A stretch of DNA of 64,000 nucleotides from a virus (taxonomy: Duplodnaviria; Heunggongvirae; Uroviricota; Caudoviricetes). Both the position numbers and the translations under genes were made by a program. Shown here one piece after another: positions 14,121 to 64,000 of the stretch. The stretch lies in IMG/VR virus record IMGVR_UViG_3300029705_000072. One strand, written 5' to 3'. Positions within the stretch are counted from its first letter, which is position 1; every line of letters starts with the position of its first letter. The notes beneath the pieces are model-generated. The model was given only the letters and a program-made list of their open reading frames with translations, did not search any database and had not been told where the DNA came from.

Positions 14121-14139
14121 AAGGATAGTTTTATGAGGC

Positions 14140-15338: not shown

Positions 15339-15362
15339 AGATACTAAATAAGAGGAGTAAAT

Positions 15363-15596: not shown

Positions 15597-15632
15597 TTTT
15601 TACACGATGCTAAATAAAAGGAGTGAAATATT

Positions 15633-16481: not shown

Positions 16482-16484
16482 TAT

Positions 16485-16575: not shown

Positions 16576-16654
16576 AAAATCTTCGTCGTGGTTGCATTCG
16601 GCGGACGGTTTTTTATACTCCATTAGGCGATAGGTTTATCCCTATCGCCACCCA

Positions 16655-16738
16655 GGGGTTGTGATGGAAAGGCAGACATGACGGACTTAAAATCCGTTGG
16701 AGAAATCCGTGTGGGTTCAAGTCCCACCATCCCCACCA
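16655..16738 (+). tRNA. tRNA-Leu (UAA), type II (one acceptor mismatch)
   Basis: anticodon stem acgga/tccgt with loop ctTAAaa; D-arm matches the other Leu tRNA; T-arm gtgggttcaagtcccac. Confidence 0.75.
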
Positions 16739-16741
16739 TAT

Positions 16742-16834
16742 GGAAAGATAAGCCTAATGGTAAGGCAGCGGTCTCGAAAACCGCCAGTAGCCATCTAAGA
16801 TGGCGTATGAGTTCAAGTCTCATTCTTTCCGCCA
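16742..16834 (+). tRNA. tRNA-Ser (CGA), type II
   Basis: acceptor ggaaaga/tctttcc; anticodon loop ctCGAaa; long variable arm. Confidence 0.8.
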
Positions 16835-16837
16835 TAT

Positions 16838-16914
16838 GCGGCGTTGATGTTCAATGGTTAGCATATCAGCCTTCCAAGCTGAGTGAGCCGGTTCGAGTCC
16901 GGTACGCCGCTCCA
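16838..16914 (+). tRNA. tRNA-Gly (UCC)
   Basis: acceptor gcggcgt/acgccgc; anticodon loop ctTCCaa; T-arm ccggttcgagtccgg. Confidence 0.85.
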
Positions 16915-17035
16915 GCCCCTTGCCCGGGCACACGCTACTTTTCCTTGGTGGTAGATTGGTAAAACCACCTTGTCAGGATGTGGCAGAGACCATACCTTGT
17001 CGGCGGAACGAGGAAACATCCATCCGCTATTTTTT
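16915..17035 (+). other. non-coding segment with degenerate tRNA-like pieces and a T-run
   Basis: ggatgtggcagag resembles the Leu tRNA D-arm; hairpin ggtggtagattggtaaaaccacc; ends in ctattttttc; no intact T-arm. Confidence 0.25.
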
Positions 17036-17112
17036 CTGGGTGTAGCGCAGTTCGGTAGCGCGTCTGTTTTGGGTACAGAAGGCCGCTGGTTCAAATCCAG
17101 TCACTCAGACCA
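17036..17112 (+). tRNA. tRNA-Pro (UGG)
   Basis: acceptor ctgggtg/cactcag; anticodon stem tctgt/acaga with loop ttTGGgt; T-loop ttcaaat; CCA encoded. Confidence 0.85.
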
Positions 17113-43446: not shown

Positions 43447-44032
43447 GTACACTGTACCTGATTATGGATGTGTAAGAAACATTAAGGTATATGGATTAGA
43501 CGAAAGTATTGCTAGGTCAAAGTACCCTAAGAGTGTAGACCCATTTAAAGAAAATGGGAATGTCACAAACACTGTGCTATCTCTTGCTCAATCACAAAAG
43601 GGAGAGGGGCACGACAATTATCTTTGTGGAATTGTTGCGCAGTTCGACCTAGTCTTTTCTGTAAAAGAATGGGTGGAGGCAGAAAGATATCATTTCTTCG
43701 ATATCATTTCGAGCCAGTCCACGATGCATAAGATTTCAGAGTTCGATCTGGACTTGTCGTATGACAAACACGTCGATCCAAGGGTTGTCGAGATAATGAA
43801 GGAACTTGTTGCAAGGTACAAAGAAACCGGCGACCCAGAGGACTACCTGAATGTACTAATGACAAACCCAAACGGATGCATGCTTGTTGCTGGAATAACC
43901 ACCAACTACAGACAGCTTAAGACTATGCTATCTCAGCGAGAAGCACATAGGCTTCCAAGATGGAGAGAGTTCTGCAAGGCAGTAAGAACATTCCCGATGG
44001 CTGGGGAATTTATTGTTAAAAAGAAGGGGTGA
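43438..44032 (+). CDS. hypothetical protein (probable TTG start)
   Basis: ORF preceding nrdD. Confidence 0.4.
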
Positions 44033-45191
44033 TATCTTGTTCGGTAAAGAAAGAATTAAGGTAATTAAGAAGGACGGCACTAGACAGGAGTTTAATGCCG
44101 ACAAGATTAAGAAAGCCATTACGAAGTCCGCAGAGAGAGTAATGGTAAGTCTGAATGAAAGTGATTTTGATACGGTAATCGAGTTCGTAGAAGAAAACCT
44201 TCCCGAAGACGAAGACTGCACCGTAGATGAGATGCACAACATTGTTGAGTGTGCACTAGAAGAACTGAACCCTACGGTCGCCACAAGCTACAGAAACTAC
44301 CGTAACTATAAGAAGGACTTTGTTCACATGCTGGACAAGGTGTACCAGAAGTCACAGTCGATCCGATATATTGGTGATAGAGATAATGCGAATACAGACT
44401 CGGCGCTTGTTCCTACCCAAAGAAGCCTTATCTACAACGAACTTAATAGTGCGTTGTACAAAAAGTTCTTCTTAAACAGGGAAGAACGCGAGGCAATGAA
44501 GGACGGGTATATTTACATCCACGATAGATCTGCGCGACTGGATGCTATAAATTGTTGTTTGGCAAATATTTCGAACATCTTAGACGGCGGTTTTGAGATG
44601 GGTAACGTATGGTATAACGAGCCCAAGACGCTTGATGTAGCATTTGATGTTATCTCTGATATTACAATGTCCGCCGCCGCATGTCAGTATGGCGGATTCA
44701 CAATCCCAAGAGTCGACACAATCTTGGTGCCATATGCAGAAAAGAGCTACCAGAAGTACTTAAAAGAATACTGCGATATTGTGAGCGCGCACACCGGCGA
44801 GCCTGTACTTCGAACCAGCAAAGAGGCTGACGAGTACGCAGCCAAGAAGGTGTATAGAGATTTCGAGCAAGGGTTCCAGTCATGGGAGTACCGATTTAAT
44901 ACCGTCGGTAGCAGCAGGGGTGACTACCCGTTCATCGCAATGAGCCTGGGTATTGATACGTCTCGGTTCGGTCTCATGGCTACAGAGGTTGCTCTGCGCG
45001 TAAGAATGGAAGGTCAGGGTAAGGCTGGTCATAAGAAGCCAGTGCTATTCCCTAAAATCACTTTCTTATACGATGAGAATCTTCATGGAGAAGGCGCCCC
45101 GTACGAATACCTGTTTGATGTTGCGATCGATTGCAGCAGTAAGGCAATGTACCCTAAGAAGATTGGGGCATGTTACGGCAACGTAGCATGA
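44013..45191 (+). CDS. nrdD: anaerobic ribonucleoside-triphosphate reductase NrdD, exon 1 (ATP-cone + N-terminal barrel)
   Basis: ATP-cone KVIKKDGTRQEFNADKIKKAI; class III RNR core. Confidence 0.8.
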   Translation: MLKRRGDILFGKERIKVIKKDGTRQEFNADKIKKAITKSAERVMVSLNESDFDTVIEFVEENLPEDEDCTVDEMHNIVECALEELNPTVATSYRNYRNYKKDFVHMLDKVYQKSQSIRYIGDRDNANTDSALVPTQRSLIYNELNSALYKKFFLNREEREAMKDGYIYIHDRSARLDAINCCLANISNILDGGFEMGNVWYNEPKTLDVAFDVISDITMSAAACQYGGFTIPRVDTILVPYAEKSYQKYLKEYCDIVSAHTGEPVLRTSKEADEYAAKKVYRDFEQGFQSWEYRFNTVGSSRGDYPFIAMSLGIDTSRFGLMATEVALRVRMEGQGKAGHKKPVLFPKITFLYDENLHGEGAPYEYLFDVAIDCSSKAMYPKKIGACYGNVA

Positions 45192-45480
45192 AAACCTTGT
45201 GAACCCAAATATTTGGGGTGTACAGTCGACGTTTAGTATCCGTAGGAAATGACGGATAACGATTGTGCTAACCGGGGAAGCCACGATGTGGTCAATCCGG
45301 TGGGTCGCGTTGTGCGGCCTCAATCGACTATCGAAACGATAACGCAGCACGAAGGCTGCGCGAATAACGGAGTAGAGTACTCTTTCGGTGAAATTCCGAA
45401 CGAGGAAGTGCAAGGCACCCGGCTCCAGTGAATCGGGTGATGATATAGTCAGAGCGGCACACGAGTAAGAGCGTGGTATG
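45189..45480 (+). mobile_element. ORF-less group I intron-like insert splitting nrdD (about 290 nt)
   Basis: conserved NrdD frame stops then resumes 286 nt later; GC-rich structured segment; precedent of introns in phage nrdD; boundaries approximate. Confidence 0.5.
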
Positions 45481-46536
45481 GTAACATACAGCCGCTTGGA
45501 TTTCTTATCTCTTACAGGCGAAGGGTATATCCCTTCAATGTATAAAAAGTACGGAAAGGTCGTATCTCTAATGGGCTGCCGAGCGTCCCTGTCTCCATTC
45601 TACGAACGAGGCGGAATGACACCAGCGGATGAAGATGACGTACCTGTATTTGAAGGAAGATTTAACATGGGCGCAATCTCATTACACCTTCCGATGATTC
45701 TTGCAAAAGCAAGACACGAAAACAAGGACTTCTACGATGTGCTTGACCATTACTTAGAGATGATCAGAAACCTTCATAAAAAGACCTACGATTACTTGGG
45801 CGAAAAGAAAGCATCTACAAATCCTCTTGGATTCTGCCAGGGCGGATTTTACGGCGGCCATCTAAACCCAGATGATAAGATAAGACCTCTGCTTGCTCCT
45901 ATGACAATGAGCTTTGGTATCACGGCTCTGAATGAGTTACAGGAGCTGTACAACGGCAAGTCCTTGGTAGAGGACGGAGAGTTCGCACTAGAGGTAATGA
46001 GATACATAAACGACAGAGTTAACTGGTTCAAAGAACAGGATGGTATTTTATATGCTATCTACGGAACACCGGCAGAGTCGTTGTGTGGACTTCAGGTCGA
46101 GCAGTTCAGAAAGAAGTACGGTATTGTAAATAAGGTTTCAGACAGACCATATGTGAGCAACAGCTTCCATTGCGGCGTGTGGGAAGATATCAACCCAATT
46201 GAAAAGCAGGATCTTGAAGGTCGCTTCTGGGATTTACTCAACGGTGGCAAGATTCAATACTGCAGATATCCAGTATCATACAACAAGGAAGCAATTAAGA
46301 CTCTTGTGAGAAGAGCAATGGATAAGGGCTTCTATGAGGGTATCAATCTGAGTCTTGCCTACTGCGAAGAGTGTGGGTACGAAGAACTTGACATGGATGT
46401 GTGTCCAAAGTGCGGTAGCGAATTGATCACGAAAATCGACCGCATGAACGGCTACCTTGGATATACAAGAGTTCATGGCAAGACCAGATATAATGACGCA
46501 AAGAACGCAGAAATCAAAGACAGAGTTAGTATGTAG
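45478..46536 (+). CDS. nrdD: NrdD exon 2 (glycyl-radical domain + Zn ribbon)
   Basis: MGCRASL; C-terminal CEECGY...CPKCGS and RMNGYLGYTRV (glycyl-radical region). Confidence 0.8.
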   Translation: MVTYSRLDFLSLTGEGYIPSMYKKYGKVVSLMGCRASLSPFYERGGMTPADEDDVPVFEGRFNMGAISLHLPMILAKARHENKDFYDVLDHYLEMIRNLHKKTYDYLGEKKASTNPLGFCQGGFYGGHLNPDDKIRPLLAPMTMSFGITALNELQELYNGKSLVEDGEFALEVMRYINDRVNWFKEQDGILYAIYGTPAESLCGLQVEQFRKKYGIVNKVSDRPYVSNSFHCGVWEDINPIEKQDLEGRFWDLLNGGKIQYCRYPVSYNKEAIKTLVRRAMDKGFYEGINLSLAYCEECGYEELDMDVCPKCGSELITKIDRMNGYLGYTRVHGKTRYNDAKNAEIKDRVSM

Positions 46537-48460: not shown

Positions 48461-49705
48461 ATGTCCGAAAAAAGAAGAGATAGCAAAGGACGTATTCTTT
48501 GGAACGGAGAGTTACAAAGAAAAGACGGTAAATACGAGTTTCGGTATACAGATTTAAAGGGGGAGCGCCATAGCGTATATAGTTGGAAACTGGTAGATAC
48601 GGATAAAGTACCGCAAGGAAAACGGTGTAAAGAGTCTCTCAGAGAGATTGAAAAAAGAATAAAACGTGACCTCGATGACGGATTAGATGCGAGGCTTATC
48701 GACAGAATTAAGGTAAACGACATTGTCATAGACTGGCTAGACATGGTGTGTCCTAGGCTGAAAATGAATACAAAGACGCAATACTGGAGTATGTACAAGA
48801 CATATATAAAAGACAGTATTGGACCTATGAAGGCATCTGAGATAAGGCCGTCTCATATAAGAAAGCTTTATACGAGCATACTTGTCGATCGGAAACGTAC
48901 TTTTAGAACGGTAGCTGTGTTAAACGTAATTATAACCGGTGCATTTTCTTCAGCGGTTAACGATGGCATAATCAGAAAGAACCCATCAATAGGAATCACA
49001 AAAGAACTGTCAAGACTTAACAAAAAGGGAAAGCCTGTTGTGGCGTTGAGCAAATCGCAACAGGAAAGACTTTTAAGATTTGTTCGTGGTCACCAAAAGT
49101 ACAGTAGGTGGGAGAACGTTATACTGGCTCTTCTTGGTACCGGGTGTAGAATCGGCGAGTTAGTCTCGTTGGTTGCCGGTGATTGTAATTTCGAAGAGTC
49201 TTACATCAACATACAAAGGGGTGTGTTCTACAAGAACGGTAAGAAGCAAATAGAGATTACAACAACAAAGTCTGAAAGCGGTATGCGGATAATACCTATG
49301 TTCGATGATGTTAGATCTGTCATACTAGAAGAACTTGGTGTAGAATCTCCGATGCAGATTTCAAATCTCGATGAACCAATATTTAAGAGCGTAACCGGCG
49401 ATATGCTACTGCCATCATCCGTAGAGGGAATGATGAGGCGACTGAAAGAGGCGTACAACAAATACGACGAACAGTTGGCTGCGGAAGAGAATAGGCGGCC
49501 AGATCCGATAGAAAGGCTCACGCCGCACGTATTCAGACACACATTTTGTACGAGGCTGTGTGAAAAAACATCCGATATAAAAATAGTACAAGAAATTATG
49601 GGGCATGCCGACATATCGGTTACTATGAATGTCTACAACAATATAAGTAAGGATAGGAAGATAGAAAGGTTCAAAGACTTCGGTGAATCCATCTCGGAAA
49701 TTTGA
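48461..49705 (+). CDS. int: tyrosine integrase (Int-Tn family)
   Basis: N-terminal arm-binding domain; catalytic box LTPHVFRHTFCTRL...IMGHADISVTMNVY. Confidence 0.9.
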   Translation: MSEKRRDSKGRILWNGELQRKDGKYEFRYTDLKGERHSVYSWKLVDTDKVPQGKRCKESLREIEKRIKRDLDDGLDARLIDRIKVNDIVIDWLDMVCPRLKMNTKTQYWSMYKTYIKDSIGPMKASEIRPSHIRKLYTSILVDRKRTFRTVAVLNVIITGAFSSAVNDGIIRKNPSIGITKELSRLNKKGKPVVALSKSQQERLLRFVRGHQKYSRWENVILALLGTGCRIGELVSLVAGDCNFEESYINIQRGVFYKNGKKQIEITTTKSESGMRIIPMFDDVRSVILEELGVESPMQISNLDEPIFKSVTGDMLLPSSVEGMMRRLKEAYNKYDEQLAAEENRRPDPIERLTPHVFRHTFCTRLCEKTSDIKIVQEIMGHADISVTMNVYNNISKDRKIERFKDFGESISEI

Positions 49706-52085: not shown

Positions 52086-52622
52086 TCAGAGGGTGTCAGG
52101 GGTCGAGGATGGTATCGCCGGGACACTTGTAGGTGGTTTGAATCCTAGATAAGAATTTTCAAGCTTTTTAAAGTCACAACAGACCCTATGCAAAAAGGCG
52201 TCTTTGCCCTCAAGTCTCTTTGCATATACACGCTTTGCTTTTTCTTCAATCCTACTTGCGTTCTTTCTTATAAATCTGACCTCGTTAGATTCGTAGGTAT
52301 CTAGTTCTGGGTCTATAATTACCCTGCTATATACACCTGGCATAACCGGGAACATATTGTTGTGAAGTATATTAGCGATTTCTTTTCCAGAACTATCTCT
52401 AACAAATGTAGTTATAGACGCAGCGCGCTTCTTTTTACCATTAATACTTCTTTCGAAAGTAGTCTGTGAAGTGAGCGGTAAAACGTACGTAATACCATTC
52501 ACCATGGTAATAACGCCAACAAACGGTCTATTGTTGTATTTAACGCTAATCCTATAGTCTATCTTATGCATGTATTTCAGGTAGTCTGCGTCTATTTTAA
52601 TCAGATCTAAATTACGTTCCAT
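52086..52622 (-). CDS. toxN: ToxN/AbiQ-family endoribonuclease toxin (type III TA)
   Basis: LIKIDADYLKYMHKIDYRISVKYNNRPFVGVITMVNGITYVLPLTSQ parallels ToxN/AbiQ; upstream repeat array plus hairpin. Confidence 0.75.
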   Translation of the reverse strand: MERNLDLIKIDADYLKYMHKIDYRISVKYNNRPFVGVITMVNGITYVLPLTSQTTFERSINGKKKRAASITTFVRDSSGKEIANILHNNMFPVMPGVYSRVIIDPELDTYESNEVRFIRKNASRIEEKAKRVYAKRLEGKDAFLHRVCCDFKKLENSYLGFKPPTSVPAIPSSTPDTL

Positions 52623-52649
52623 TGCCACGACTCTTACTATAAAAGAAAT

Positions 52650-52675
52650 GGGTTGTTCACATAAGCAAACAACCC
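52650..52675 (-). terminator. hairpin between the ToxI repeats and toxN (attenuator/terminator)
   Basis: gggttgtt-cacataagca-aacaaccc. Confidence 0.5.
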
Positions 52676-52679
52676 GCAT

Positions 52680-52760
52680 TTTGATTCGTCCACTAAAGCA
52701 GGACCTCTCTAATTGTGCGTCGTCCACTAAAGCAGGACCTCTCTTAACTACATTATACCC
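52680..52760 (-). ncRNA. toxI: ToxI/AntiQ-like antitoxin RNA repeats (2 x 34-nt direct repeats)
   Basis: tcgtccactaaagcaggacctctc occurs twice with a 34-nt period directly upstream of toxN. Confidence 0.7.
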
Positions 52761-52834: not shown

Positions 52835-53455
52835 TCAATACCCACGAACGTCCTCGATGAAGGAGTGATTCTTCATATGGTTCTCATATGATTCGGCGAT
52901 GATACGGTAGACCACATCGATCTCACCGTTCGTCAAACCACGCTCTTCGAGGAAGGCTTCGTACTTACGGTACACCTTAAAAATACGGTTGAACTCTTCT
53001 CGGGAAACCATTACGCTGTCATCGCTGACCTTTGTAGCGAAATCAATGATGCGATCTCGGCTGTTTTGAACGAACAGCTCTTCGGTCATCTTTGTATTGT
53101 CGTTCAGAGCTCTAGTTACGTCTGCGAGGCTGCTGCTGATATCCGCAATGGATTGGTCATAAATATCAGCGCGGCAGTTTACCCAGTTCATCCAGTTATT
53201 TCTCTTGGTGATGTTGTCCTCTGAGTAGTGTGCATTTACATCTCCCAAAAGCTGCTTGACGGCCTTCAGGGTTTGTGCGGTGTCTTCTCTTTCTGCCTTT
53301 TTGCGGGAGAAGAATTTCCGCATCTTCACAAATTCAGGCACAACTTTTCCTTTGAATTCCAGGATCTCTCCAACCAGGTTCATCACAACCAGGACTAGAA
53401 CGATCACGATAGCGACCTTAGAGGGCAGGTTCAGATACTCGAGATAGCCAAGCAT
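52835..53455 (-). CDS. membrane-anchored hypothetical protein (206 aa)
   Basis: N-terminal TM; sits between the holins and ToxIN. Confidence 0.5.
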   Translation of the reverse strand: MLGYLEYLNLPSKVAIVIVLVLVVMNLVGEILEFKGKVVPEFVKMRKFFSRKKAEREDTAQTLKAVKQLLGDVNAHYSEDNITKRNNWMNWVNCRADIYDQSIADISSSLADVTRALNDNTKMTEELFVQNSRDRIIDFATKVSDDSVMVSREEFNRIFKVYRKYEAFLEERGLTNGEIDVVYRIIAESYENHMKNHSFIEDVRGY

Positions 53456-53836: not shown

Positions 53837-54139
53837 TTATTTTTCTTCTTCCATCGACACCATCTTCATCAGGTTCTTAAAAGCCTCGTAATAACCGGTG
53901 CCCATCAGCCCAGATGTCGCACCGATATAGATGGCGTTGATAATGTCGTTTGCGGGGAAGTCTTCCATAGTTTTCATGAAGACCGCACCCAGAACTGCGC
54001 CTACCGCGAGGTTGATCCAGGGAATAGCTTTGTTCTCGATCTTTGTTTTATGTTTCAGAAACATGCCTAGAATTAGGCAGATGAGGGTAATGGGCTGTAC
54101 GATGGTAACACCGAACAGCTCAAAGATATTAAAGTCCAT
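53837..54139 (-). CDS. holin (two TM segments)
   Basis: TM1 VTIVQPITLICLILGMFL, TM2 INLAVGAVLGAVF; RBS GGAGGT. Confidence 0.65.
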   Translation of the reverse strand: MDFNIFELFGVTIVQPITLICLILGMFLKHKTKIENKAIPWINLAVGAVLGAVFMKTMEDFPANDIINAIYIGATSGLMGTGYYEAFKNLMKMVSMEEEK

Positions 54140-54144
54140 CGTAA

Positions 54145-54570
54145 CTACCTCCAATCTGTTTCGTGATGTCTCTTGTAACCGTATCTGCCAGCATCAGACC
54201 CGAAGTGCATACCCCAGTCATACAGACCAATGTTTGCAATCTTGTCATGATGGTCGCAGATCTTTTTCCAAGCGTACTTGAATTGACGATACTTATCAGA
54301 AGGGATGCCGGTAATGTCTGTACCGAGACCATCAAGGTGTTCGCTGTTTGCATCGCCGCCGCAAGAAGTGTTGAAGCTCTTGGTGCGATACCACGAAGAC
54401 ACCTCAAGTGGCTTTCCGTACCAGTCACGGAGTTCCTGCAGCATCTGTGCGTGTTCGATCAGTTCGGGTGTTAATACGAGCTTTATCTCTTCGGAAGCCT
54501 GCTTGTTAGCAGCCTCATATACGCTAAAGTTCTTCGTAAGTTGCCCAGATACCATATATCCGTTTGCCAT
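54145..54570 (-). CDS. peptidase M15 (VanY / L-Ala-D-Glu peptidase-like) endolysin
   Basis: SWYRT...CGGDANSEHLDGLGTDI...D..GMHFG zinc-binding signature; RBS GGAGGTGAT. Confidence 0.7.
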   Translation of the reverse strand: MANGYMVSGQLTKNFSVYEAANKQASEEIKLVLTPELIEHAQMLQELRDWYGKPLEVSSWYRTKSFNTSCGGDANSEHLDGLGTDITGIPSDKYRQFKYAWKKICDHHDKIANIGLYDWGMHFGSDAGRYGYKRHHETDWR

Positions 54571-54582
54571 CGGAATCACCTC

Positions 54583-55611
54583 CTAAGAGAATAGGGAAGT
54601 GAAGGTGGCCTGTCCAGCCCATCCATCCACTTCGAGTCCGTTTGCTTCTTGATAGCTCTTCAGCATGCTGAGAAGGGTGTATGAGAATACACCGTCGATC
54701 TTGCCACAGTCGTAACCCTTTCGACAGAGGGCACCCTGAAGAATACGTACTCTGTTTGGAGTTGCGTATGAGCTTCCGAGAGTGAAAGACTTGTGTTCGC
54801 GCTTAGAAGCAGGACCCCAGGAGCCGTCTACATCAGAGCCGTTCTCGGTCTGCATAGCCATGATCTGACCTCTGTTGGTTGCGGGTCCGAGAGAACCGTC
54901 TACAGCGAGTCCGAGTCCGTATTCCGAATTCAGCCAGGTTTGATACTGCTTCTGGGTAGACATAGAAGAGTGATCTCCGTCTGTACCGTTGTCGGGTTCT
55001 ACCACGGCGTAAATGAAGTTCATTACAATTCGAGAAGAGTTAATTACTCTACCAGCCAAATTGCACTGAGAGCTTCCGCCTCCGTCAAGATTACCGGCAT
55101 AAGTGCATCCGAGATTCTTCATGTAAGCGACACCCTCATCGAGAGTGAGGTCGCTCTTTCCACCAACATCCTGGGCGCACACCATGAAGAAGTGTGTGTC
55201 GTTGTGGCCGATCATGGTTCTGCCGCGATCAGTATTGTCGATGCAATATGAAAAGCCTGAGTGCTGCTTTCCGACCTCGAGAAGGGGAGGGTGAACAGCA
55301 ACTGCGTCTAGAACGTGTACCGGGCAGTTATTGCCTCTGCAGTACAGTTCGGGCTTAGCGCCTCTGTTGAAGGCATAGAAAGCCTCGTTGGAGAACACGG
55401 GGTTAACCATGATACCGTTGACTTTCAGGCCAAGAGCAGAAGTTCCGTCCCAATTAAAAAAGCCACCGTTCATAAGGTGGATTTCTTTACCTGGGTATTT
55501 GTTTTTCAAGGTCGAATAGACCTTGTTCATAGAATGTCTGTTTGATGAATTATCCCACATACCGATGTGGATAATCCGGTTAAATGGAATTTTGGAAACC
55601 AGAGTTGCCAT
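54583..55611 (-). CDS. cell-wall hydrolase: NAGPA/phosphodiester-glycosidase-like domain + C-terminal peptidoglycan-binding repeats
   Basis: LDGGGSS signature; DGSLGPAT / DGSWGPAS / DGWAGQAT (PG_binding_1-like); RBS AAAAGGAGG. Confidence 0.65.
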   Translation of the reverse strand: MATLVSKIPFNRIIHIGMWDNSSNRHSMNKVYSTLKNKYPGKEIHLMNGGFFNWDGTSALGLKVNGIMVNPVFSNEAFYAFNRGAKPELYCRGNNCPVHVLDAVAVHPPLLEVGKQHSGFSYCIDNTDRGRTMIGHNDTHFFMVCAQDVGGKSDLTLDEGVAYMKNLGCTYAGNLDGGGSSQCNLAGRVINSSRIVMNFIYAVVEPDNGTDGDHSSMSTQKQYQTWLNSEYGLGLAVDGSLGPATNRGQIMAMQTENGSDVDGSWGPASKREHKSFTLGSSYATPNRVRILQGALCRKGYDCGKIDGVFSYTLLSMLKSYQEANGLEVDGWAGQATFTSLFS

Positions 55612-55637
55612 ACCGTTTCCTCCTTTTATTCTAAAAA

Positions 55638-56780
55638 CTAAGCATTGCCAAATGTTTCTCCGGAACACGATCCGTAGCAAGTTGTTGAGCAAGAATAATG
55701 GCACGATGTTTTGCACTCTCCTTCACACCCCGCACTACAGCTAGTACATGCAGTATCACAGGAATTAGAACATTTGCCAGAGCAAGAAGTACCGCCGCAG
55801 CCAGAACAACCGGCACATCCGCCGCAATTATTGGTACATCCGCCAATGCAACCATTTCCACATCCTCCGGAACATCCTTGTGTACAACTTTCACATCCAG
55901 ATCCACACGAAGTGTCGCAACCACTATCGCAACCGTCATCACATGAGTTTCCGCACCCTGATCCACAATTCGTATAACACCCTCCAACGCAGTCGCCTAT
56001 ACACCATCCATTACAGGCACCGCAGCCGGTGCCACAGTCTCCCGCACAGTCGTTATTACACGATCCACTACAAGACGACGTACACTGAAGGCTACAAGTA
56101 GCAGTGCATTCACCGGCGCATCCTTTGCCACATCCTTGACACTGTCCAGAACACGAGCCAACGCATCCATCTATGCACGCACCCGTACATCCATTTGTGC
56201 ATCCCCCAGAGCAATTCCCATAGCAACCAGTACATCCATCCTCGCAATCACCAGAACATCCTGACACGCATCCGCCGGTGCAACTAGTACAGCCAGTAGT
56301 GCAACCACTACCACACGTGCCCTTACATCCGTCACAATACGACCCATATGACGTTACAGACGTATCGCCTTCGCATCCAGAACAGCCGCTCGCGCAAGTT
56401 CCTTGACATAGACCAGTACAAGCGCTGCGGCAAGAAGAGGAGCCCGTATCCGTCTCTGTTGCTAATTCGTTTACATATGTAATGAGAGAGGAATCGAAAG
56501 AACTTGGAAGTGGTTCTCCGACTGAAACCAGTTTTAAGTCGCCGTAATCCTTAATTTTCAATAACAAATCAACAGTCTTTTGTCCAAAATCAATCGTTAC
56601 ACCGTTATCGGACGACGGATCTGTTTTAAAGTTATACTCATCGCCAGAATAGTCGATTGCTTCACCACTTACAGCATATCCGTATCCACCGTCAGTACTA
56701 AGGCTTCCATAGTATTTTCTTCTTTCAAACTCGTCGTGGATTTTCTGCTTTAATTCCTTAATTTGCGATATAGTAAGCAT
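55638..56780 (-). CDS. Cys-repeat protein B: conserved 140-aa N-domain + about 240 aa of (C-x-x-x)n tetrapeptide repeats (about 70 Cys)
   Basis: CTGLCQGTCASGCSGC...; C-terminus STTCYGSCSGETFGNA; coupled to fibre 2 (14-nt gap, RBS GGAGGTGAT). Confidence 0.75.
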   Translation of the reverse strand: MLTISQIKELKQKIHDEFERRKYYGSLSTDGGYGYAVSGEAIDYSGDEYNFKTDPSSDNGVTIDFGQKTVDLLLKIKDYGDLKLVSVGEPLPSSFDSSLITYVNELATETDTGSSSCRSACTGLCQGTCASGCSGCEGDTSVTSYGSYCDGCKGTCGSGCTTGCTSCTGGCVSGCSGDCEDGCTGCYGNCSGGCTNGCTGACIDGCVGSCSGQCQGCGKGCAGECTATCSLQCTSSCSGSCNNDCAGDCGTGCGACNGWCIGDCVGGCYTNCGSGCGNSCDDGCDSGCDTSCGSGCESCTQGCSGGCGNGCIGGCTNNCGGCAGCSGCGGTSCSGKCSNSCDTACTSCSAGCEGECKTSCHYSCSTTCYGSCSGETFGNA

Positions 56781-56794
56781 TTAATCACCTCCGA

Positions 56795-57958
56795 CTAAGA
56801 ATCTGCGCCCCAAGACGATACGACAGGAGTCCATGTCGTGCCGTTGTGGTAATACATAACTCCATTTGAACTCTTAATCCAAAGAACTTTGGTGTTCGTA
56901 GGTGCGGATGCCTGTAACACAAAACCACCAGAATTGCTGGTTGTTGTTATTGTAATCCCAGAACTACCGTCAAACGAAGCCGACCCGGATACGTCACCTG
57001 ATAGAGTTATCGTTCTTGCTTCTTTAAGCTTAGTTGCAGTGTCTGCGTTTCCGGTTACGTTTCCCTTTACGTTTCCGGTCACACTTCCGGTTATGTTTGC
57101 TGTTATTCCAGACGGGAAGAGAGAGGGTTTATCTAAATAAAGGACAATTTGATTTGTCGTAGAACTAGTGTTTGGGTTAATTACGATTGCTTTTGTGTTC
57201 GAAGATATTGCAACGTGTTGATTTGAACTTGTACCAAAAACAAGCTGAGATGTGCTGGATGTACTAGAATTTTCTTTTGCACCGGTTAAATAGATATGGC
57301 CAGTCATGCCGCCGCCACTCAATTTTAGATAATTTGCGAGATCGCTTGCGTTTGCTTTTGTTCCAACAGCATCTTCCAGAAGATCGAACGCATCTTTATT
57401 GGTGTTAACTAGGTCTAGGATTTCCTTTAACGTATCATACTCTGCGTCTGTATGACCTATAAGCGTGGCTATTTCAGAATCCGTATAAGATTTTGACTCT
57501 GAAATGGCGGCCGCCTGTGCTTCTGCGGCCTTTGTTGCAGCAACACCAACAGCCTCTTTGCCATCGAGTTCTGCTTTAAGGTTTGTTACGTCGCTTATTG
57601 TGTGAGCGTGCGAGTTATCGTTCACGGTAATTATACCGTTCGAAATAACAACATCGCCACCGGTTTTAACCATTCCGAGGCTGGTGCCGGCAGCTGTGTT
57701 ATTTGACGGAATACCGAGCGCGGTAATATCATCGAGAGATACCCTCTCTCCAATAGTAACGTGTCCTTCAGAATTTGTTGTGATTTTTAAAAATCCAGAC
57801 ACGGCTACGCCCTTATTAGTTACGGAGTGCTTGTATGCGACGTCCAGATCAGTGCCGAGAATTTCGTCGATTTCAGTAAAATTGCTATTTATATCTGCGA
57901 TGTCAATGACATCGGTATAGTCTGGTAGGTTAAACTTTTTATAATTCGATGTCTTCAC
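56795..57958 (-). CDS. tail fibre protein 2
   Basis: NDNSHAHTISDVTNLKAELDGK and LSGGGMTGHIYLTG fibre motifs; C-terminal MYYHNGTTWTPVVSSWG shared with fibre 1. Confidence 0.75.
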   Translation of the reverse strand: MKTSNYKKFNLPDYTDVIDIADINSNFTEIDEILGTDLDVAYKHSVTNKGVAVSGFLKITTNSEGHVTIGERVSLDDITALGIPSNNTAAGTSLGMVKTGGDVVISNGIITVNDNSHAHTISDVTNLKAELDGKEAVGVAATKAAEAQAAAISESKSYTDSEIATLIGHTDAEYDTLKEILDLVNTNKDAFDLLEDAVGTKANASDLANYLKLSGGGMTGHIYLTGAKENSSTSSTSQLVFGTSSNQHVAISSNTKAIVINPNTSSTTNQIVLYLDKPSLFPSGITANITGSVTGNVKGNVTGNADTATKLKEARTITLSGDVSGSASFDGSSGITITTTSNSGGFVLQASAPTNTKVLWIKSSNGVMYYHNGTTWTPVVSSWGADS

Positions 57959-58019
57959 ACGTTATTCCTCCTTGAAAATAGTTCCCTCAAAAGGAACCGT
58001 GTGGCCCCTATAATAGGGT

Positions 58020-58052
58020 AAATAGAACACCTCCGGCTTTTTATAGCCGGAG
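58020..58052 (-). terminator. terminator after the rSAM gene
   Basis: cctccggctataaaaagccggagg hairpin + T-run on the minus strand. Confidence 0.6.
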
Positions 58053-58085
58053 GTTTTCAAATGTTAGTTTTATTTAGTTTAGCGC

Positions 58086-59411
58086 CTATAAAGAAACTCC
58101 GCTTTCCAGGAACTTTAGCAATGCGAATTCATCCTCGCTAATGATCTTAAGCGCATCTTCTTTGGGCAGCCAAATTTTGAATCTGGCGGACGGGTTTGCA
58201 ATACGATATACCTTGTTCCAGTAATATGCGTTTGCAAGACTTCTTGCTTTGTGCATAATGCAAATAAAAGTAGCTCGTTTGTTTACCGTTCCAAAACACT
58301 GATAGTTATATGCACTACACCATGAGCAACCCTTTGCAATAGGACAGAAAAAGCATTCATCAGTAGATTGTGTTCTTCTATCAACGCTATTCATTTCTTG
58401 ACAAATCTGGCAATGCCGTTCTGTGCTCAAGATTCCGTCGTAAATGTTACCAATACATAGTGGTTCTATCTCTGTACCAAGGGAACTTTCCATATATCGA
58501 ATACAAGGATATAAATCGCCCTTCCAGTCAACTGCGAGCATCGAGCCGGTTCCGCCACACCAGTTCTGCAGATCGTCTTGCATCATTGGCATAAAATTCT
58601 TTTCATCAAAAATGGAAACGAATACGTTTTCGTATAGTCGATTCTCAATCATGTAGTCGGCCAGCTCTTTTAGTTGCGAATATAATGTTCTTGCGTGTTC
58701 TTCAGTCCAACCTTCTTCATATACGCAATTAAGATTTATTTCGGTATATCCTTTTTCGATAAGACCCTTTACCGCTTCACATACGAACGAAACATTTTCT
58801 GGAGCGATGGTCATTTTACTACCCATATTCCCCTGAAATTCGTTCATGTAGTGTTCGACGGCAGCAATTGCAATATCATAACTTCCCCTACCATCTGGGA
58901 AAACTCTACAAGCGTCATGAAGTCTTTTGTTGCCATCGATGCTAATGCTAAAACTTAAGTGCTTTAAGTGCCGGCGTATGTATTTTTGAACCTCCGGCTT
59001 AAAATATAAAGTTCCGTTCGAACAGATTGATATACGATATCTGTTTAGCCATGGATGATCTCTTTCGATCATGGAGTTAATAAAGTAATCAGTTAGATCA
59101 GATACTAGACCTATTTCTACGAATGGCTCTCCGCCGATAAATTCTAGAATAATTGCTTCTGTGTCTGAATAATCACAGTAATTATCGTATTTACCGTCGA
59201 GAAGATCATCGATGAATTTCTTTCCAACCTCAAGCGGCATTACGTGCGTGTGCTTGTTGATTTGATAGCAGTATGTACACGCAAGATTGCACGCGTCAGT
59301 CACCTGGATGGTGACTGTACGCGTTGCATAACTTTTACGCTGTTCGGTTTTAAAAATGCGGCGAATATACTCATCGTATGTACCTTGCTTTATTTGCCGC
59401 ATGAAACACAA
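58086..59411 (-). CDS. radical SAM enzyme with C-terminal SPASM domain (anSME-like peptide/protein-modifying maturase)
   Basis: CNLACTYC (CX3CX2C); FIGGEP; SISIDG..HD..R; C-terminal CGGTGS...C...CQICQ...CFFCP...CSWCS auxiliary-cluster Cys. Confidence 0.8.
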   Translation of the reverse strand: MCFMRQIKQGTYDEYIRRIFKTEQRKSYATRTVTIQVTDACNLACTYCYQINKHTHVMPLEVGKKFIDDLLDGKYDNYCDYSDTEAIILEFIGGEPFVEIGLVSDLTDYFINSMIERDHPWLNRYRISICSNGTLYFKPEVQKYIRRHLKHLSFSISIDGNKRLHDACRVFPDGRGSYDIAIAAVEHYMNEFQGNMGSKMTIAPENVSFVCEAVKGLIEKGYTEINLNCVYEEGWTEEHARTLYSQLKELADYMIENRLYENVFVSIFDEKNFMPMMQDDLQNWCGGTGSMLAVDWKGDLYPCIRYMESSLGTEIEPLCIGNIYDGILSTERHCQICQEMNSVDRRTQSTDECFFCPIAKGCSWCSAYNYQCFGTVNKRATFICIMHKARSLANAYYWNKVYRIANPSARFKIWLPKEDALKIISEDEFALLKFLESGVSL

Positions 59412-59683
59412 GCCCCCGATTCGTTAACGGACAATTCACAGGTAGCAAAGTCCAGATTCCAGGACTGACCGTTACCAATACCAACAGAGTTAACCATTTC
59501 CTGTTTGGCTTTATTGTACATAACGAAAAATTCCTGATACTCATTATGATACTTCGCGAACATAGCGCTTTCTGTGTTCATGCCGTTTGAAAGCATCTGT
59601 GTAATAACATCCTTACGGCTTTCGACTTCGTACTGAAGGGCTTCAATTTTTTCAACGATTTCTTTGTTAACTACAATTTTCAT
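59390..59683 (-). CDS. 97-aa protein translationally coupled to the rSAM gene; C-terminus ...DFATCELSVNESGACVSCGK (RiPP-precursor-like or partner peptide)
   Basis: RBS AAAGAAAGGAAATT; stop overlaps the rSAM start; 4 Cys in the last 20 aa. Confidence 0.55.
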   Translation of the reverse strand: MKIVVNKEIVEKIEALQYEVESRKDVITQMLSNGMNTESAMFAKYHNEYQEFFVMYNKAKQEMVNSVGIGNGQSWNLDFATCELSVNESGACVSCGK

Positions 59684-59736
59684 AATAATTTCCTTTCTTT
59701 CATCCTGTCCAAACGGACGTTTTATTGAGTTTTTAG

Positions 59737-60588
59737 TTAAGCAACTCCGTACGTCTCTCCGGAGCAACTACCATAACATGTTGTTGAACATGTTGAGAAG
59801 CAAGTAGATTTACACTGGCCGTTGCATCCGCTGGAGCAACCAGAGCAGCCAGAACAACCGGAGCATTGGCTTGTGCAATCAGAACCACCGCAACCGGAAC
59901 AACCGGCACAACCTCCGCAACCGCCTTCACAGCCACCTGAACAGCCACTAGCACACTGTGTATAGCATCCACCGTGGCATAGTGAGTAGCAAGAAGCATT
60001 ACAATATGGGTCTCCTGCCGTGGTATAGCTAGAACCAGAGCAAGAATCGCAACGGTCACTACAACCTCCTTGACAATAACCAGAACAGCTACCACAGTTA
60101 TTAGAGCATCCAGAGCCACAACTTGCAGAGCACCCGTCGCAATAACTACCATAACTTGTTCCGGCAGTACTTCCTGTACAACCAGAACAGCCGCTTGCGC
60201 ACGTACCCTGACATAGTCCGGTGCAAGCGCTGCGGCAAGAAGAGGATGACCCTGTAATAGATTCTGACGCAAGTGCATTAACGTATGTTATGAGTTCTTC
60301 ATCGAACGAAGAAGGGAGACTGTCGCCCTTTGAAACGAGTTTCAAATCCCCGTAATCTTTGATTTTAAGCAGTAAATCAATAGTCTTTTGACCATGTTCT
60401 GCTAGTATAAAACCGCCCGAAGTAGGAGCGGTAGTAAAGTCATAGCTCGACCCAGAATAGTCGGTAGCAGTATCTTTCACAGCATAGTTATAACCACCAT
60501 CTGTACTTAAACTACCATAGTATTTTCTACGAGCCATTTCAGCTTTTATTTTAGTCTTTAGTTCTTTTATTTGTGTTGCTGTTAACAT
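59737..60588 (-). CDS. Cys-repeat protein A: same N-domain as protein B + shorter (C-x-x-x)n repeat region
   Basis: N-domain about 70% identical to protein B; C-terminus STTCYGSCSGETYGVA; 6-nt gap after the fibre 1 stop. Confidence 0.75.
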   Translation of the reverse strand: MLTATQIKELKTKIKAEMARRKYYGSLSTDGGYNYAVKDTATDYSGSSYDFTTAPTSGGFILAEHGQKTIDLLLKIKDYGDLKLVSKGDSLPSSFDEELITYVNALASESITGSSSSCRSACTGLCQGTCASGCSGCTGSTAGTSYGSYCDGCSASCGSGCSNNCGSCSGYCQGGCSDRCDSCSGSSYTTAGDPYCNASCYSLCHGGCYTQCASGCSGGCEGGCGGCAGCSGCGGSDCTSQCSGCSGCSGCSSGCNGQCKSTCFSTCSTTCYGSCSGETYGVA

Positions 60589-60594
60589 ACATCA

Positions 60595-63500
60595 TTACCC
60601 CCAAACAGAAGCGACTTGTGTCCAAGTACCACTACTATTTTTGTAATACATAATGTCTGTTGATTCATCAACATAAATCTTACCACCTGTAGAAGCGGAA
60701 GGAGCACCAGAACCGGTATTATAAATATCTGTTATTGCGATAGAAGTTACACCGATATCAGAAGCTGTCAGAGTAATATTTCCTGTTAATTTCTTTCCAT
60801 TAATTGTTCTAGAAGTGGGAACTGCACCTAAACTGCTTATAGTAGGTAGATCAGCAGTTGTAGCAACCCTTGTACCCTTCCACAGAAGATTACCTGAGCT
60901 TCCTCCGATTGCAAGACCTGAAGAATATGGATATTCAGTAGCAGAAGCATCAAATAAACCACCAATGAATGATGTACCATCGACTTGGTCGGTACAATAA
61001 CCATAGACCATTTTCTTTGCACCGCCAGCCGCAGGAATTGCAATTACTTGAGCAGCACTACCGTCTCTGCTATTGGTTACATCTTCAATGATAATATCAG
61101 AGTCTTGAACATCACCACTTGTACCGTCCCATCTGACAATAGCCTTGTTTGTTACCGTTTTAGCAGTGTCTGCTTTTGGCGGTCTAGTGATAGCGAACAT
61201 CTTAGCGCCCTTTTGTACTGCTAAAGGAGTTACAGTACCGGTATCGCTAGAGAACGTGGTGCAACTAGCAGAGGGATAAACAATGGTTACACCCGCTTGA
61301 GATGCAGTTGCTACTGGGACGTACATATTATTTACTCCCGTGCCAGTACCAATATTTAAGTTGCTACTACCTCCGGTTGGAGATGATGGAGGGGTACTTG
61401 TGTATTTTGGAGTATGATAATAGTTGGTATTCGTATCAGTGCCAGTAATAGTGATATTGCCACTTGCGTCACTTGTAACACTTACGCTACCTGCACCGGT
61501 GATCTTATGAGTAGATGTAGCGGAGCCGTTTTCAATGTGATTCAGATACACATTGCCGTTGGTCTTTGCTGCGTTTGCGTTTGTATTTGTTGCACCAACA
61601 GTATTCTTACTGCTATAGTGCGTATCGGTGTCGGTGTTTGTCCAAGGTACATTAACAGCCAGATAACCGGTCTTATCGATAGCGACAGGGTATACTCTGC
61701 CAGAGGTTGTAGTAGCCGCTGCTGAGTCTACAGTCAGAGCTGTTTCGCTACGAAGCTTTGCTTTATAGCTTGTGGTGCCGCTTGTACCGCCGCTTCCTGT
61801 TACAGTCAAACCAACGCCTGCAGAATGTGCGTGAGAGGTGTTATTGTCGGTGTTCGGATTTGCTGGCATCTGGATAGAATCAACGGTTACTCCGGTAACG
61901 TGACCCTTTGCGTCGCGCTGAATGTTTACACCTGTGACAAGGTCAGTCGAACCCCAGGTTGCAGGAGTAGTGCTGCTTGCGTCTGCGCTCAGAGCGGCAG
62001 CGGAGTCTGCGGCAGGGGTATAGTGATTACCGACGGCGGTTACCTTAGTATCTGTATTGTCGCTTGCAGGGATCTTTACGGTATGTTCGCTGATTCCGGT
62101 AACGTGACCGGTTGCGTTTACAGTAACATAAGGTACCTTGAAGGTTCCGCCATATGCAGGGGTCTGTGCGGCACTATCGCCGTAACTGCCGGCGGTTGCA
62201 CCTGAATTTGCATGAGAGATTGTTCTTGTACCACTGCTGGTAATAGCAGAGGTAGAATCAATTGCGATAGGAGAGGTGGCCTTCAGTGTAACACTGGTTA
62301 CAGTGCCCTTAGGTTCATCGCCGGATGGTATCAGAACCCATGCGGGTTCATCAGAGCAGACAAATACGTCGCCAGCCTTAGCAGCCTGACTTGCGTATGT
62401 ACCGTCCTTAATTACCTTATAAGTATCACCAACAGTGCTTGAGGACGCTGTGGGAAGCGCGGTAATAGTACCGCCTGTACCAAGTGAGCCCTTAAACACC
62501 ATTGCAGTAGAGATGTCTGCTTTGGTGGCATAGTCACTCAGATCAACGCTACCGGTAATGCTTACACCGGTTCCGCTCTTACTTGCACTCAGAGTGAGTG
62601 GAGCAGTGCCAGAAGCGGTTACAGAACCAACACCGCCAAGAGAAGAAAGGGTGGGGATGGTTGCACCGGTAACGGTAACAACACCGTCGGAAGCGGTTAC
62701 GCTTACAGAACCAGCGCCCTTGATGTTTACTTCGCCTTCAGCAGAGCCGTCGTAAGTTTCAACCACAGTACCATTTCCCTTAATTACTAAAGAATTTGGG
62801 TTCTTCAGAGAGGAGGGTACGGTTGGTACTGTAGGCATAGTAATCGATAGAGTTTGTTCAGTCAGGCCGGTAGTGTGACCGTACTTATCAACGGTTACCT
62901 TGGGAACCTTGATAGAACCTGACTTACCGGATCCACTAATGGTCACATCTGCGGTAGCACCCTTGGTAGTGCTTGTAGTAGTGTTGGGACCCTTGGTTGC
63001 GTGAGTAGCTGTATAGCTTACGCCGTTAGTTCCATTAGAACCAGTTAAAACAACTACGTCATCATCAGACGCACCAGCGGTGATCGTGAACGATGTAGTG
63101 TTGTTGTCGGTCCAAGGAACGTTGACATACATCTGGTTGTCGCTGTTCAGTTCGACAGGGTAATTCTTTCCGCTTTCGGGGAAGCCGATCTTGACAAGAC
63201 CGAGAGTGTCATCTGTTGCGATGCCATAGGTGGTATCCTTGTCTTCGGGAAGAGTAACGGTCTTGGTGTTTACCTTGGTAACATGACCGTTGGTATCTCT
63301 GGTTACGCTGTCGACCACAGTGAAGGTACCGCCGTGACTGGGAGCGGCGGTAGAAGTGCTATCAGAGTATTTACTGATAGTGGGGTGTGCGGATGAAATC
63401 GTGATTTTGTCGTTAGTAGCATCAGCAGTAACGGTTACGTTGCTACCAGCTTCGATGGTCAACGAATCGGTCTTTGAGTCTGCCTCTACGGTTGTTGAAC

Positions 63501-64000
63501 CAACAACGACCTTGCTGAATGCGTTCTGGTTTACTTCTGCTCCCGCAGCAATGCCAGAAAGCTTGTTCTTCTCAGTAGTGGTATAGTCGTTAGTAGACAG
63601 TCCCTTACCGCTTACCTTGTCGACCTTATTGCCAAGAGCGGCGCTGACCGCCTTGTTCTGAACGGGGTTTGTTGAGGAACCGTTAATAGCAGAGTCTACA
63701 ACAACTGCTGCGGGGGTATCGGACAGATCTTTGTAGCTACCGCTTGTTGCTACGTCAGCCAGACCTGTGATCATAGAGGCCGGGTGAGAAGCGGGGTGCG
63801 AATAATTGTTTGCATTTGCTTCGATACCAGAAAGCTTATTCTTTTCTGCAGTAGTGTAGTCGTTTGTGGAAAGACCCTTTCCGTTTACCTTATCAACTTT
63901 GTTCGAGAGTTCGGACTTCGTTGCGTATGTTGCGCTGATGTTGTTACCTTCTGCGTCTTGCTTTGCAGAAGAGTAGGGGAGTTCACTGAAATTGCTAACC
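60595..64000 (-). CDS. tail fibre protein 1 (partial; continues past the window end)
   Basis: reading frame stays open upstream of Met at 63774 (..KVDKVNGKGLSTNDYTTAEKNKLSGIE..); tandem LS.NDYT..EK.KLSGI fibre repeats; C-terminal MYYKNSSGTWTQVASVWG. Confidence 0.8.
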   Translation of the reverse strand, partial: VSNFSELPYSSAKQDAEGNNISATYATKSELSNKVDKVNGKGLSTNDYTTAEKNKLSGIEANANNYSHPASHPASMITGLADVATSGSYKDLSDTPAAVVVDSAINGSSTNPVQNKAVSAALGNKVDKVSGKGLSTNDYTTTEKNKLSGIAAGAEVNQNAFSKVVVGSTTVEADSKTDSLTIEAGSNVTVTADATNDKITISSAHPTISKYSDSTSTAAPSHGGTFTVVDSVTRDTNGHVTKVNTKTVTLPEDKDTTYGIATDDTLGLVKIGFPESGKNYPVELNSDNQMYVNVPWTDNNTTSFTITAGASDDDVVVLTGSNGTNGVSYTATHATKGPNTTTSTTKGATADVTISGSGKSGSIKVPKVTVDKYGHTTGLTEQTLSITMPTVPTVPSSLKNPNSLVIKGNGTVVETYDGSAEGEVNIKGAGSVSVTASDGVVTVTGATIPTLSSLGGVGSVTASGTAPLTLSASKSGTGVSITGSVDLSDYATKADISTAMVFKGSLGTGGTITALPTASSSTVGDTYKVIKDGTYASQAAKAGDVFVCSDEPAWVLIPSGDEPKGTVTSVTLKATSPIAIDSTSAITSSGTRTISHANSGATAGSYGDSAAQTPAYGGTFKVPYVTVNATGHVTGISEHTVKIPASDNTDTKVTAVGNHYTPAADSAAALSADASSTTPATWGSTDLVTGVNIQRDAKGHVTGVTVDSIQMPANPNTDNNTSHAHSAGVGLTVTGSGGTSGTTSYKAKLRSETALTVDSAAATTTSGRVYPVAIDKTGYLAVNVPWTNTDTDTHYSSKNTVGATNTNANAAKTNGNVYLNHIENGSATSTHKITGAGSVSVTSDASGNITITGTDTNTNYYHTPKYTSTPPSSPTGGSSNLNIGTGTGVNNMYVPVATASQAGVTIVYPSASCTTFSSDTGTVTPLAVQKGAKMFAITRPPKADTAKTVTNKAIVRWDGTSGDVQDSDIIIEDVTNSRDGSAAQVIAIPAAGGAKKMVYGYCTDQVDGTSFIGGLFDASATEYPYSSGLAIGGSSGNLLWKGTRVATTADLPTISSLGAVPTSRTINGKKLTGNITLTASDIGVTSIAITDIYNTGSGAPSASTGGKIYVDESTDIMYYKNSSGTWTQVASVWG

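Follow-up and report, generated by a model that had tools for sequence, protein, structure and literature searches.

The right-hand end of IMG/VR virus record IMGVR_UViG_3300029705_000072, a 64,000-nucleotide stretch of Caudoviricetes DNA analysed here at its full length (the window), raises the question of what a radical S-adenosylmethionine (rSAM) enzyme is doing between two tail-fibre genes. Each of these fibre genes (fibA and fibB) is followed by a gene whose product carries a long array of Cys-x-x-x (CXXX) repeats (cxA and cxB), and the rSAM gene is itself preceded by a gene for a 97-amino-acid (aa) protein. With modest confidence, we read this module as a stripped-down peptide-modification cassette that has been co-opted to mature a structural tail-fibre component or adhesin. 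It is quite probable that the CXXX arrays are the substrates of the rSAM enzyme. Thioether formation as the chemistry, proposed by analogy with related maturases, is at best an even guess.

Comparison of the enzyme with the NCBIfam models places it firmly within one family. The protein scored 444.9 bits against TIGR04115 ("radical SAM peptide maturase, CXXX-repeat target family"; cut-off 350) over model positions 1-359 of 359. It stayed below the cut-offs of the PapB-type ranthipeptide maturase NF047865 (172.8 bits, cut-off 340), the SCIFF maturase TIGR03974 (115.5, cut-off 425), QhpD TIGR03906 (97.6, cut-off 453), HxsB (78.6, cut-off 370) and the anaerobic sulfatase maturase (anSME) TIGR03942 (56.6, cut-off 349). 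An earlier note on this DNA had suggested profile searches with the anSME, SCIFF-maturase and QhpD models among others, and the scores agree with its description of the enzyme as an rSAM/SPASM peptide maturase. A role as an anSME, as a QhpD or in a cofactor pathway was rejected, since those scores lie far below the cut-offs. The Pfam models Radical_SAM and Fer4_12 gave weak matches. The CX3CX2C motif lies at C41, C45 and C48 (CNLACTYC, residues 41-48 in a 441-aa numbering) and is invariant in the alignment of relatives, as are seven C-terminal Cys (C282, C300, C350, C353, C359, C362 and C381 in alignment numbering) across seven relatives of 40-66% identity. By this alignment the enzyme has the seven-Cys set predicted to hold the auxiliary Fe-S clusters of SPASM proteins. 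Its nearest characterised families are PapB, the SCIFF maturases and QhpD, all of which form thioethers. Relatives at E 1e-60 or better make up 3,404 clusters in metagenomic proteins, and some homologues have been given the TIGR04115 family name by NCBI and JGI. Several homologous rSAM genes (L016 6897-9287; P0296, P0298 and P0299) encode proteins of 570-800 aa with intein/Hint or LAGLIDADG Pfam domains, which points to inteins inserted in the maturase gene.

In order of transcription, the minus strand carries fibA, cxA, the gene for the 97-aa protein, the rSAM gene, a terminator-like hairpin, fibB, cxB and lysis genes (a NAGPA/PG_binding endolysin, an M15 peptidase and holin-like genes). The open reading frame (ORF) coordinates agree with the earlier note in the position and strand of every gene of the module. 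Structure predictions were made with AlphaFold2 (AF2) and are given with their predicted local distance difference test (pLDDT) values. The features of the module are as follows.

60595..64000, minus strand: fibA, a long tail-fibre gene that runs off the window end (ORF; weak PHROG match phrog_18608)
60598..60747, minus strand: last ~50 aa of fibA, with a diverged version of the fibre-end motif (...IYVDEST.IMYYKNSSGTWTQVASVWG-stop; sequence comparison)
59737..60588, minus strand: cxA, a 283-aa CXXX-repeat protein (ORF, homologues, frame test)
60244..60588, minus strand: N-terminal globular domain of cxA, ~115 aa, three predicted helices, pLDDT 75-88 (AF2, homologues)
59764..60237, minus strand: Cys array of cxA, residues 118-275, 38 Cys, opening with the junction SSCRSACTGLCQGTC and closing with the aromatic cap CFSTCSTTCYGSC
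59390..59683, minus strand: 97-aa accessory protein, predicted as a beta strand, a helical hairpin and two beta strands (AF2, homologues)
58086..59402, minus strand: rSAM/SPASM maturase, 438 aa (TIGR04115, 444.9 bits)
59268..59291, minus strand: CX3CX2C radical-SAM cluster motif (CNLACTYC)
58029..58054, minus strand: terminator-like hairpin of 10 pairs, 7 of them G-C, between the rSAM gene and fibB
56795..57958, minus strand: fibB, a 387-aa tail-fibre protein with tail-fibre PHROG matches at residues 287-344
56798..56947, minus strand: last ~50 aa of fibB, bearing the fibre-end motif (APTNTKVLWIKSSNGVMYYHNGTTWTPVVSSWG)
55638..56780, minus strand: cxB, a 380-aa CXXX-repeat protein
55665..56432, minus strand: Cys array of cxB, residues 117-372, 65 Cys

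The fibA frame is open to the window end, with at least 1134 aa visible and 1059 aa after the first ATG within the window (60595-63774); an identical gene on a public contig (L099) has a full length of 1190 aa. Only 6 nt (cxA) and 14 nt (cxB) separate each fibre stop from the start of the repeat gene behind it, and a ribosome-binding site is present. The earlier note had described these gene pairs as translationally coupled; the genes are closely packed without overlap. An overlap is found between the stop of the accessory gene and the ATG of the rSAM gene, as had been claimed; it measures 13 nt, and the public gene calls concur. The fibres fibA and fibB are alike only in their last ~75 aa (37% identity), while cxA and cxB are 48.6% identical and have the junction SSCRSACTGLCQGTCASGCSGC in common. 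The two fibre/repeat-protein pairs are old paralogues. A 12-nt tandem repeat of 4.4 copies (57046-57098, minus strand) within fibB gives rise to GNVTGNVKGNVTGN in the fibre shaft.

The repeat proteins hold 38 Cys (cxA) and 65 Cys (cxB), beginning at residue 118 and 117 respectively. The earlier note had estimated about 55-70 Cys in both and a 140-aa N-terminal domain, which is too high for cxA and too long for a domain that measures ~115 aa. Nor is the C-x-x-x run unbroken, as it had stated. The Cys-Cys gaps comprise 24 of four residues, 10 of three, one of five and two of 13 in cxA, and 51 of four, 11 of three, one of five and one of 13 in cxB, so that each array includes one or two 12-residue stretches free of Cys. 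Gaps of three or four residues nevertheless account for 34 of 37 in cxA and 62 of 64 in cxB (96/101 overall), whereas random placement of the Cys reached a maximum of 21 and 32 such gaps in 20,000 trials. The regular spacing is not due to chance. The residues between the Cys are small, being mostly Ser, Thr or Gly at the first position, Gly, Ser or Asn at the second and Gly, Ser or Thr at the third. Both proteins end in the same tail, STTCYGSCSGET(F/Y)G, as had been noted before.

Homologues extend this picture. The N-terminal domain and the junction SSCR(G/S)ACTGLC are kept among them; the start of the array is near-invariant and its middle variable, and an aromatic end cap closes 10 of 11 arrays, compared with 7.8% aromatic residues at that position overall. 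Targets of the phage version range from 200 to 520 aa and from 20 to 126 Cys. A profile of the N-terminal domain found 416 representatives among 1.84 billion proteins, and a CXXX array was present in 87 of the 99 domain matches of at least 125 aa. In three loci (L017, L024 and L026) the array precedes the domain; a globular domain that can stand on either side of the array is a poor fit to a simple leader peptide. Other relatives carry DUF6273 (E 2.8e-12), a weak CBM_4_9-like insert or large globular domains C-terminal to the array. Such added domains are typical of receptor-binding proteins, some of them being lectin-like or carbohydrate-binding. Taken together, the reversed order, the added domains and the conserved start and cap suggest a modular structural part of the fibre, in which one domain serves for attachment, the repeats form a stalk and a distal binding domain may follow; a leader-core peptide fits this architecture less well. 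Pfam, NCBIfam and PHROG scans of the two repeat proteins returned a sole match, phrog_6085 (unknown function), on part of the cxB array. A BFVD search returned only one homologue, an uncharacterised 'TNFR-Cys domain-containing protein' of an uncultured siphovirus. Fibre genes downstream of the rSAM gene in three loci (L015 9239-10369, L016 9302-11302 and L018 4589-11734) end in ...GVAPCFK(V/I) or ...GVCPRFSI; these ends resemble that of the DUF6273-bearing protein P0211, which suggests a shared distal binding domain.

The genes of the module are conserved as neighbours. A CXXX protein was adjacent in 18/18 IMG/VR loci retrieved via an rSAM homologue, and in a search of 185,579 species genomes the same layout recurred in 10 of the 13 closest loci (L019-L026, L030 and L031), all of them Clostridia-type metagenome-assembled genomes. 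This adjacency agrees with the earlier proposal that the Cys-repeat proteins are the likely rSAM targets. Altogether, the phage version was found, always within tail modules, in about 50 viral or prophage loci whose tail backbones differ. The module is flanked by baseplate and tail genes upstream and an endolysin downstream in phages whose backbones are unrelated, and the window is arranged likewise. Of 17 loci, 13 have directly ahead of the module a gene whose end reads ...APxxT.LWIDT..G.LKYYNGS.WV.V.AVWG-stop. This fibre-end motif was sought in IMG/VR with a variable-gap DNA pattern, which gave 43 loci; the motif stood at an ORF C-terminus with enough flanking DNA in 29 of these, and the CXXX/rSAM module came next in 21 of the 29. 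These linkage data indicate that four elements travel together as a unit, namely the fibre-end motif, CXXX protein, accessory protein and rSAM enzyme. The earlier placing of the cassette in the tail-fibre module was borne out, and homologous fibre modules keep it as well.

The slot directly downstream of a fibre gene is the classical place of tail-fibre assembly proteins, among them Tfa of lambda, P2 and Mu and gp38 of T4. The repeat proteins could accordingly act as transient chaperones, yet a chaperone has no evident need of 38-126 Cys and a dedicated maturase, and the domains of receptor-binding type that are fused to some relatives speak for a lasting structural role. A variant of this explanation has the array bind metals or Fe-S clusters or form disulfides, with the rSAM enzyme making few or other modifications (e.g. 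Cys oxidation). The enzyme family is curated as a peptide maturase for exactly the CXXX repeat, and array length is highly variable with caps conserved at both ends, which do not favour the variant, even though Cys at every third or fourth residue with small residues between resembles metal-thiolate proteins. The lack of a fold in the AF2 model of the unmodified chain would suit either form. We consider an assembly factor or metal-binder unlikely.

The pairing of this type of rSAM enzyme with a CXXX repeat is already recognised, only computationally, in that the TIGR04115 family is curated for a CXXX target. The CXXX-repeat peptide modification system of NCBIfam (TIGR04114, TIGR04115, TIGR04116, TIGR04117 and TIGR04119) has been defined only in silico, and literature searches on CXXX-repeat rSAM enzymes, on TIGR04115 and on rSAM enzymes together with tail fibres or thioethers brought up nothing relevant among the papers available. 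The earlier note knew of no described equivalent of the module. This has to be qualified by the NCBIfam definition, and it stands for the tail-fibre setting and the large protein substrates, on which no paper was found. The nearest non-phage relatives (L027-L029), whose rSAM enzymes are 35-39% identical to that of the window, are classical RiPP (ribosomally synthesised and post-translationally modified peptide) clusters in their gene content. They encode a TIGR04115 rSAM enzyme, a second maturase of TIGR04119 (fused or separate), a TIGR04116 protein, one or two CXXX precursors of 49-61 aa and ABC exporters. The phage module resembles this system in the TIGR04115 enzyme, in the adjacent CXXX-repeat target and in an accessory protein of ~90-100 aa beside the rSAM enzyme. 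It differs in lacking TIGR04119, the exporters and the short precursors, in having large targets with a globular domain within tail-fibre modules, and in an accessory protein that stays below TIGR04116. A tblastn search with the TIGR04119 sequences of L027 and L028 found none in the window or in any phage-type locus, and the repeat proteins did not reach TIGR04114 and TIGR04117, the models for the targets of the system (TIGR04117 gave E 0.18 on the junction).

The 97-aa protein had been taken in the earlier note for a coupled, Cys-ending peptide. It belongs instead to a folded family of 50 matches, ~88-97 aa in length. Most members have 88-90 aa and end in ...WNLDFATCELT(V/I)ED, without the Cys tail. 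AF2 modelled the window protein with a pLDDT of 87.6 and left the Cys tail (residues 90-97) disordered. A role as precursor was rejected, since the family is conserved and folded and the Cys tail is disordered and missing from most homologues. The protein is probably a divergent TIGR04116-type 'CXXX repeat peptide modification system protein', as suggested by likeness in size (~90-100 aa), layout, position beside the rSAM gene and the ...[WY]xL(D/N)F... end. A homologue lies directly upstream of the rSAM gene in many loci. Pfam, NCBIfam and PHROG scans of the accessory protein gave no useful match, and its profile returned nothing significant among PDB sequences. A metagenomic protein of 334 aa (P0083) joins a CXXX protein (N-terminal domain and array) to the accessory protein. 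It may be a natural fusion or a read-through call, and in either case its make-up would link the two proteins functionally.

The RiPP-like gene content of L027-L029 also bears on a second alternative, in which the repeat proteins are precursors carried by the phage as a moron, the ~115-aa domain is a long leader or follower, and the modified Cys part, set free when the cell lyses, serves as a toxin, a bacteriocin or a signal with no tie to the fibres on either side. Other RiPP classes also have long leader domains, such as the NHLP and Nif11 leaders, and the module lies near the lysis cassette, a common site of morons. Neither the window module nor the phage loci contain a protease, an exporter or an immunity gene, however, and ABC exporters were seen only in L027-L029; TIGR04119 is likewise missing. 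The phage arrays, with 38-126 Cys, are far larger than RiPP cores, and the domain can lie at either end of the array. Some relatives are fusions with DUF6273, with CBM-like domains or with other large globular domains. The module is moreover tied to a particular fibre C-terminal motif, and each repeat gene of the window is packed right behind a fibre gene. On this evidence, a released peptide product is improbable.

Under the structural reading that we favour, each fibre (fibA and fibB) and its cognate CXXX protein would be produced side by side during late infection of a Clostridia-type anaerobe. The rSAM/SPASM maturase, aided by the 97-aa protein, would then act on the arrays of cxA and cxB in the host cytoplasm; the anaerobic ribonucleotide reductase that the phage encodes fits with an oxygen-sensitive enzyme working in such a host. 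Intramolecular links from Cys sulfur to carbon (thioether-type) would be the most probable modification, and they would stiffen the Gly/Ser/Thr-rich chain to a rod or knob that resists proteases. The ~115-aa domain would dock on the conserved C-terminal motif of the fibre, and the array would be borne on the virion as a distal stalk or adhesin. Somewhat more tentatively, the matured (CXXX)n array could represent a new kind of fibrous protein, in which dozens of enzymatic cross-links, thioether or related, are the rungs of a ladder that forms the distal rod or adhesin of the fibre.

Known systems offer partial parallels to this scheme. The ranthipeptide and SCIFF maturases (PapB with freyrasin, and CteB-type enzymes) are rSAM/SPASM enzymes acting on Cys-rich substrates and ranked next among the NCBIfam matches. 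PapB joins Cys and Asp within CX3D motifs, and this four-residue register is the same as that of the CXXX arrays. The residue four places after a Cys is another Cys in cxA and cxB, in contrast to the Asp or Glu of these substrates, and the repeats run to dozens within large proteins. The closest parallel in way of working is QhpD, the fourth-best NCBIfam match, an rSAM/SPASM enzyme whose product, the subunit QhpC, receives several intramolecular Cys thioether cross-links and stays in a larger assembly. QhpD differs in that its substrate has no repeat array, its setting is that of a periplasmic enzyme, the acceptors are Asp or Glu, and the score of the window enzyme is far under the cut-off. 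On the phage side, gp38 of T2 and S16 is encoded directly downstream of the distal fibre gene and combines an N-terminal part that attaches to the fibre tip with C-terminal Gly-rich repeats that contact the receptor. Gene order and two-part architecture thus match cxA and cxB, although there is no match in sequence or fold to the repeat proteins, and gp38 has neither a Cys array nor a modifying enzyme. An SPASM-type rSAM maturase paired with a repeat-bearing protein, as opposed to a small secreted peptide, is also described in a report on the HXS antiphage system, where the HxS-repeat protein is the effector in phage-host conflict (PMC13128918). That system differs from the phage module in its His-Xaa-Ser repeat, in being encoded by the host and in serving defence, not as part of a virion.

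Several results weigh against the structural reading. A characterised reaction for any TIGR04115 member was not found in the literature, and Asp and Glu, the acceptors used by PapB and QhpD, are scarce in the arrays. The structure prediction suggested in the earlier note for the (CXXX)n region was uninformative, because AF2 gave the cxA array a pLDDT below 50 and no confident structure, and a Foldseek search of the cxA model against the PDB returned no match. Docking of the N-terminal domain on the fibre is thus something we infer from context, given that the array yielded no structure and the domain no match among solved structures. The accessory protein had no direct NCBIfam match to TIGR04116 even at E 10, and its family aligned with the TIGR04116 proteins of L027-L029 collinearly, if weakly, in hhalign (88 columns, E 0.0014, probability 18%). 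Linkage to the fibre motif is incomplete: 4 of the 17 modules have no fibre-end motif upstream, and the module is missing after 8 of the 29 motif-bearing fibre genes. A cultured phage with the module was not found, the best match being 40% identical and from uncultured faecal contigs. Finally, the nearest non-phage relatives are exported RiPP clusters, which keeps a peptide-product role in consideration.

The reading frame of the arrays is itself well established. Between the N-terminal domains of the two paralogues, the proportion of synonymous differences (pS) is 0.77 and that of nonsynonymous differences (pN) 0.26 in the CXXX frame, whereas the other two frames have pN above pS; the CXXX frame is genuine. 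Two public contigs with 100% identical DNA (L099 and L104) nevertheless list ORFs in alternative frames (181 aa; 58, 57 and 111 aa) in place of cxA and cxB, spanning 55631-56347 and 59733-60278 of the window (minus strand). That these ORFs are the real genes and the CXXX frames an artefact is highly improbable given the pS and pN values, the domain and junction motif kept in hundreds of proteins, and a third public call on identical DNA (L100), which does give the 380-aa product. Wrong-frame calls over the arrays are probably the reason why the substrate family, with its 416 representatives, seems rarer than the enzyme with its 3,404 clusters. If the structural reading holds, this would amount to a blind spot in annotation, where gene callers often pick the wrong frame over the arrays and the substrates are largely missing from protein databases.

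If the structural reading is correct, phages of gut anaerobes would build host-recognition parts with radical-SAM chemistry, which has so far been tied to small secreted peptides and cofactors. A virion structural protein would for the first time be a target of post-translational modification by a radical-SAM enzyme, and the TIGR04115/CXXX family, so far uncharacterised, would gain an initial biological role, with a peptide natural-product pathway turned into one for structural proteins. The system is small, with three genes, and its product would be a new cross-linked repeat scaffold, tunable in length and potentially very resistant to proteases and chemicals.

Public sequence data indicate that this phage recurs. 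Six public copies (L099-L104; four from JGI and two from ENA) are 100% identical to positions 54000-64000 of the window, so that the same phage appears in several metagenomic datasets; being identical, the copies carry no information on variation in repeat number or on the host-range cassette that the earlier note suspected in the differences between the two pairs. The 97-aa protein is recorded on contigs of up to 107 kb. Searched at near-identity, 50,697 phage records contained no match to the DNA of the module.

The window as a whole comes from a large phage of an anaerobic host, temperate or present as a prophage. On its plus strand are genes for a DnaB-type helicase, a primase, a DNA polymerase, an integrase (48461-49705) and tRNAs, along with a split anaerobic ribonucleotide reductase; from ~50 kb onward the genes lie on the minus strand. 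The reductase NrdD is divided into two ORFs (44013-45191 and 45478-46536, plus strand) that match the N- and C-terminal halves of phrog_487 and are separated by a gap of ~290 nt, a split that could reflect an intron, a homing element or a frameshift. An ORF at 10384-11580 (plus strand) is reverse-transcriptase-like, with a YADD motif (phrog_2825 3.5e-43, phrog_1423). A diversity-generating retroelement that targets the fibres through this ORF was unsupported, as no pair of template and variable repeats was found within the window. A 213-aa ORF at 52086-52727 (minus strand) has an identical copy in L100 and L104 that carries Pfam ToxN_toxin (type III toxin-antitoxin/abortive infection). Tandem Repeats Finder showed no obvious ToxI-like repeat array near it, only an 11-nt unit in 2.5 copies at 52866-52894. 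The eleven tRNA genes lie at 3138-17112 (plus strand), six of them clustered at 16401-17112, as is typical of a large phage genome.

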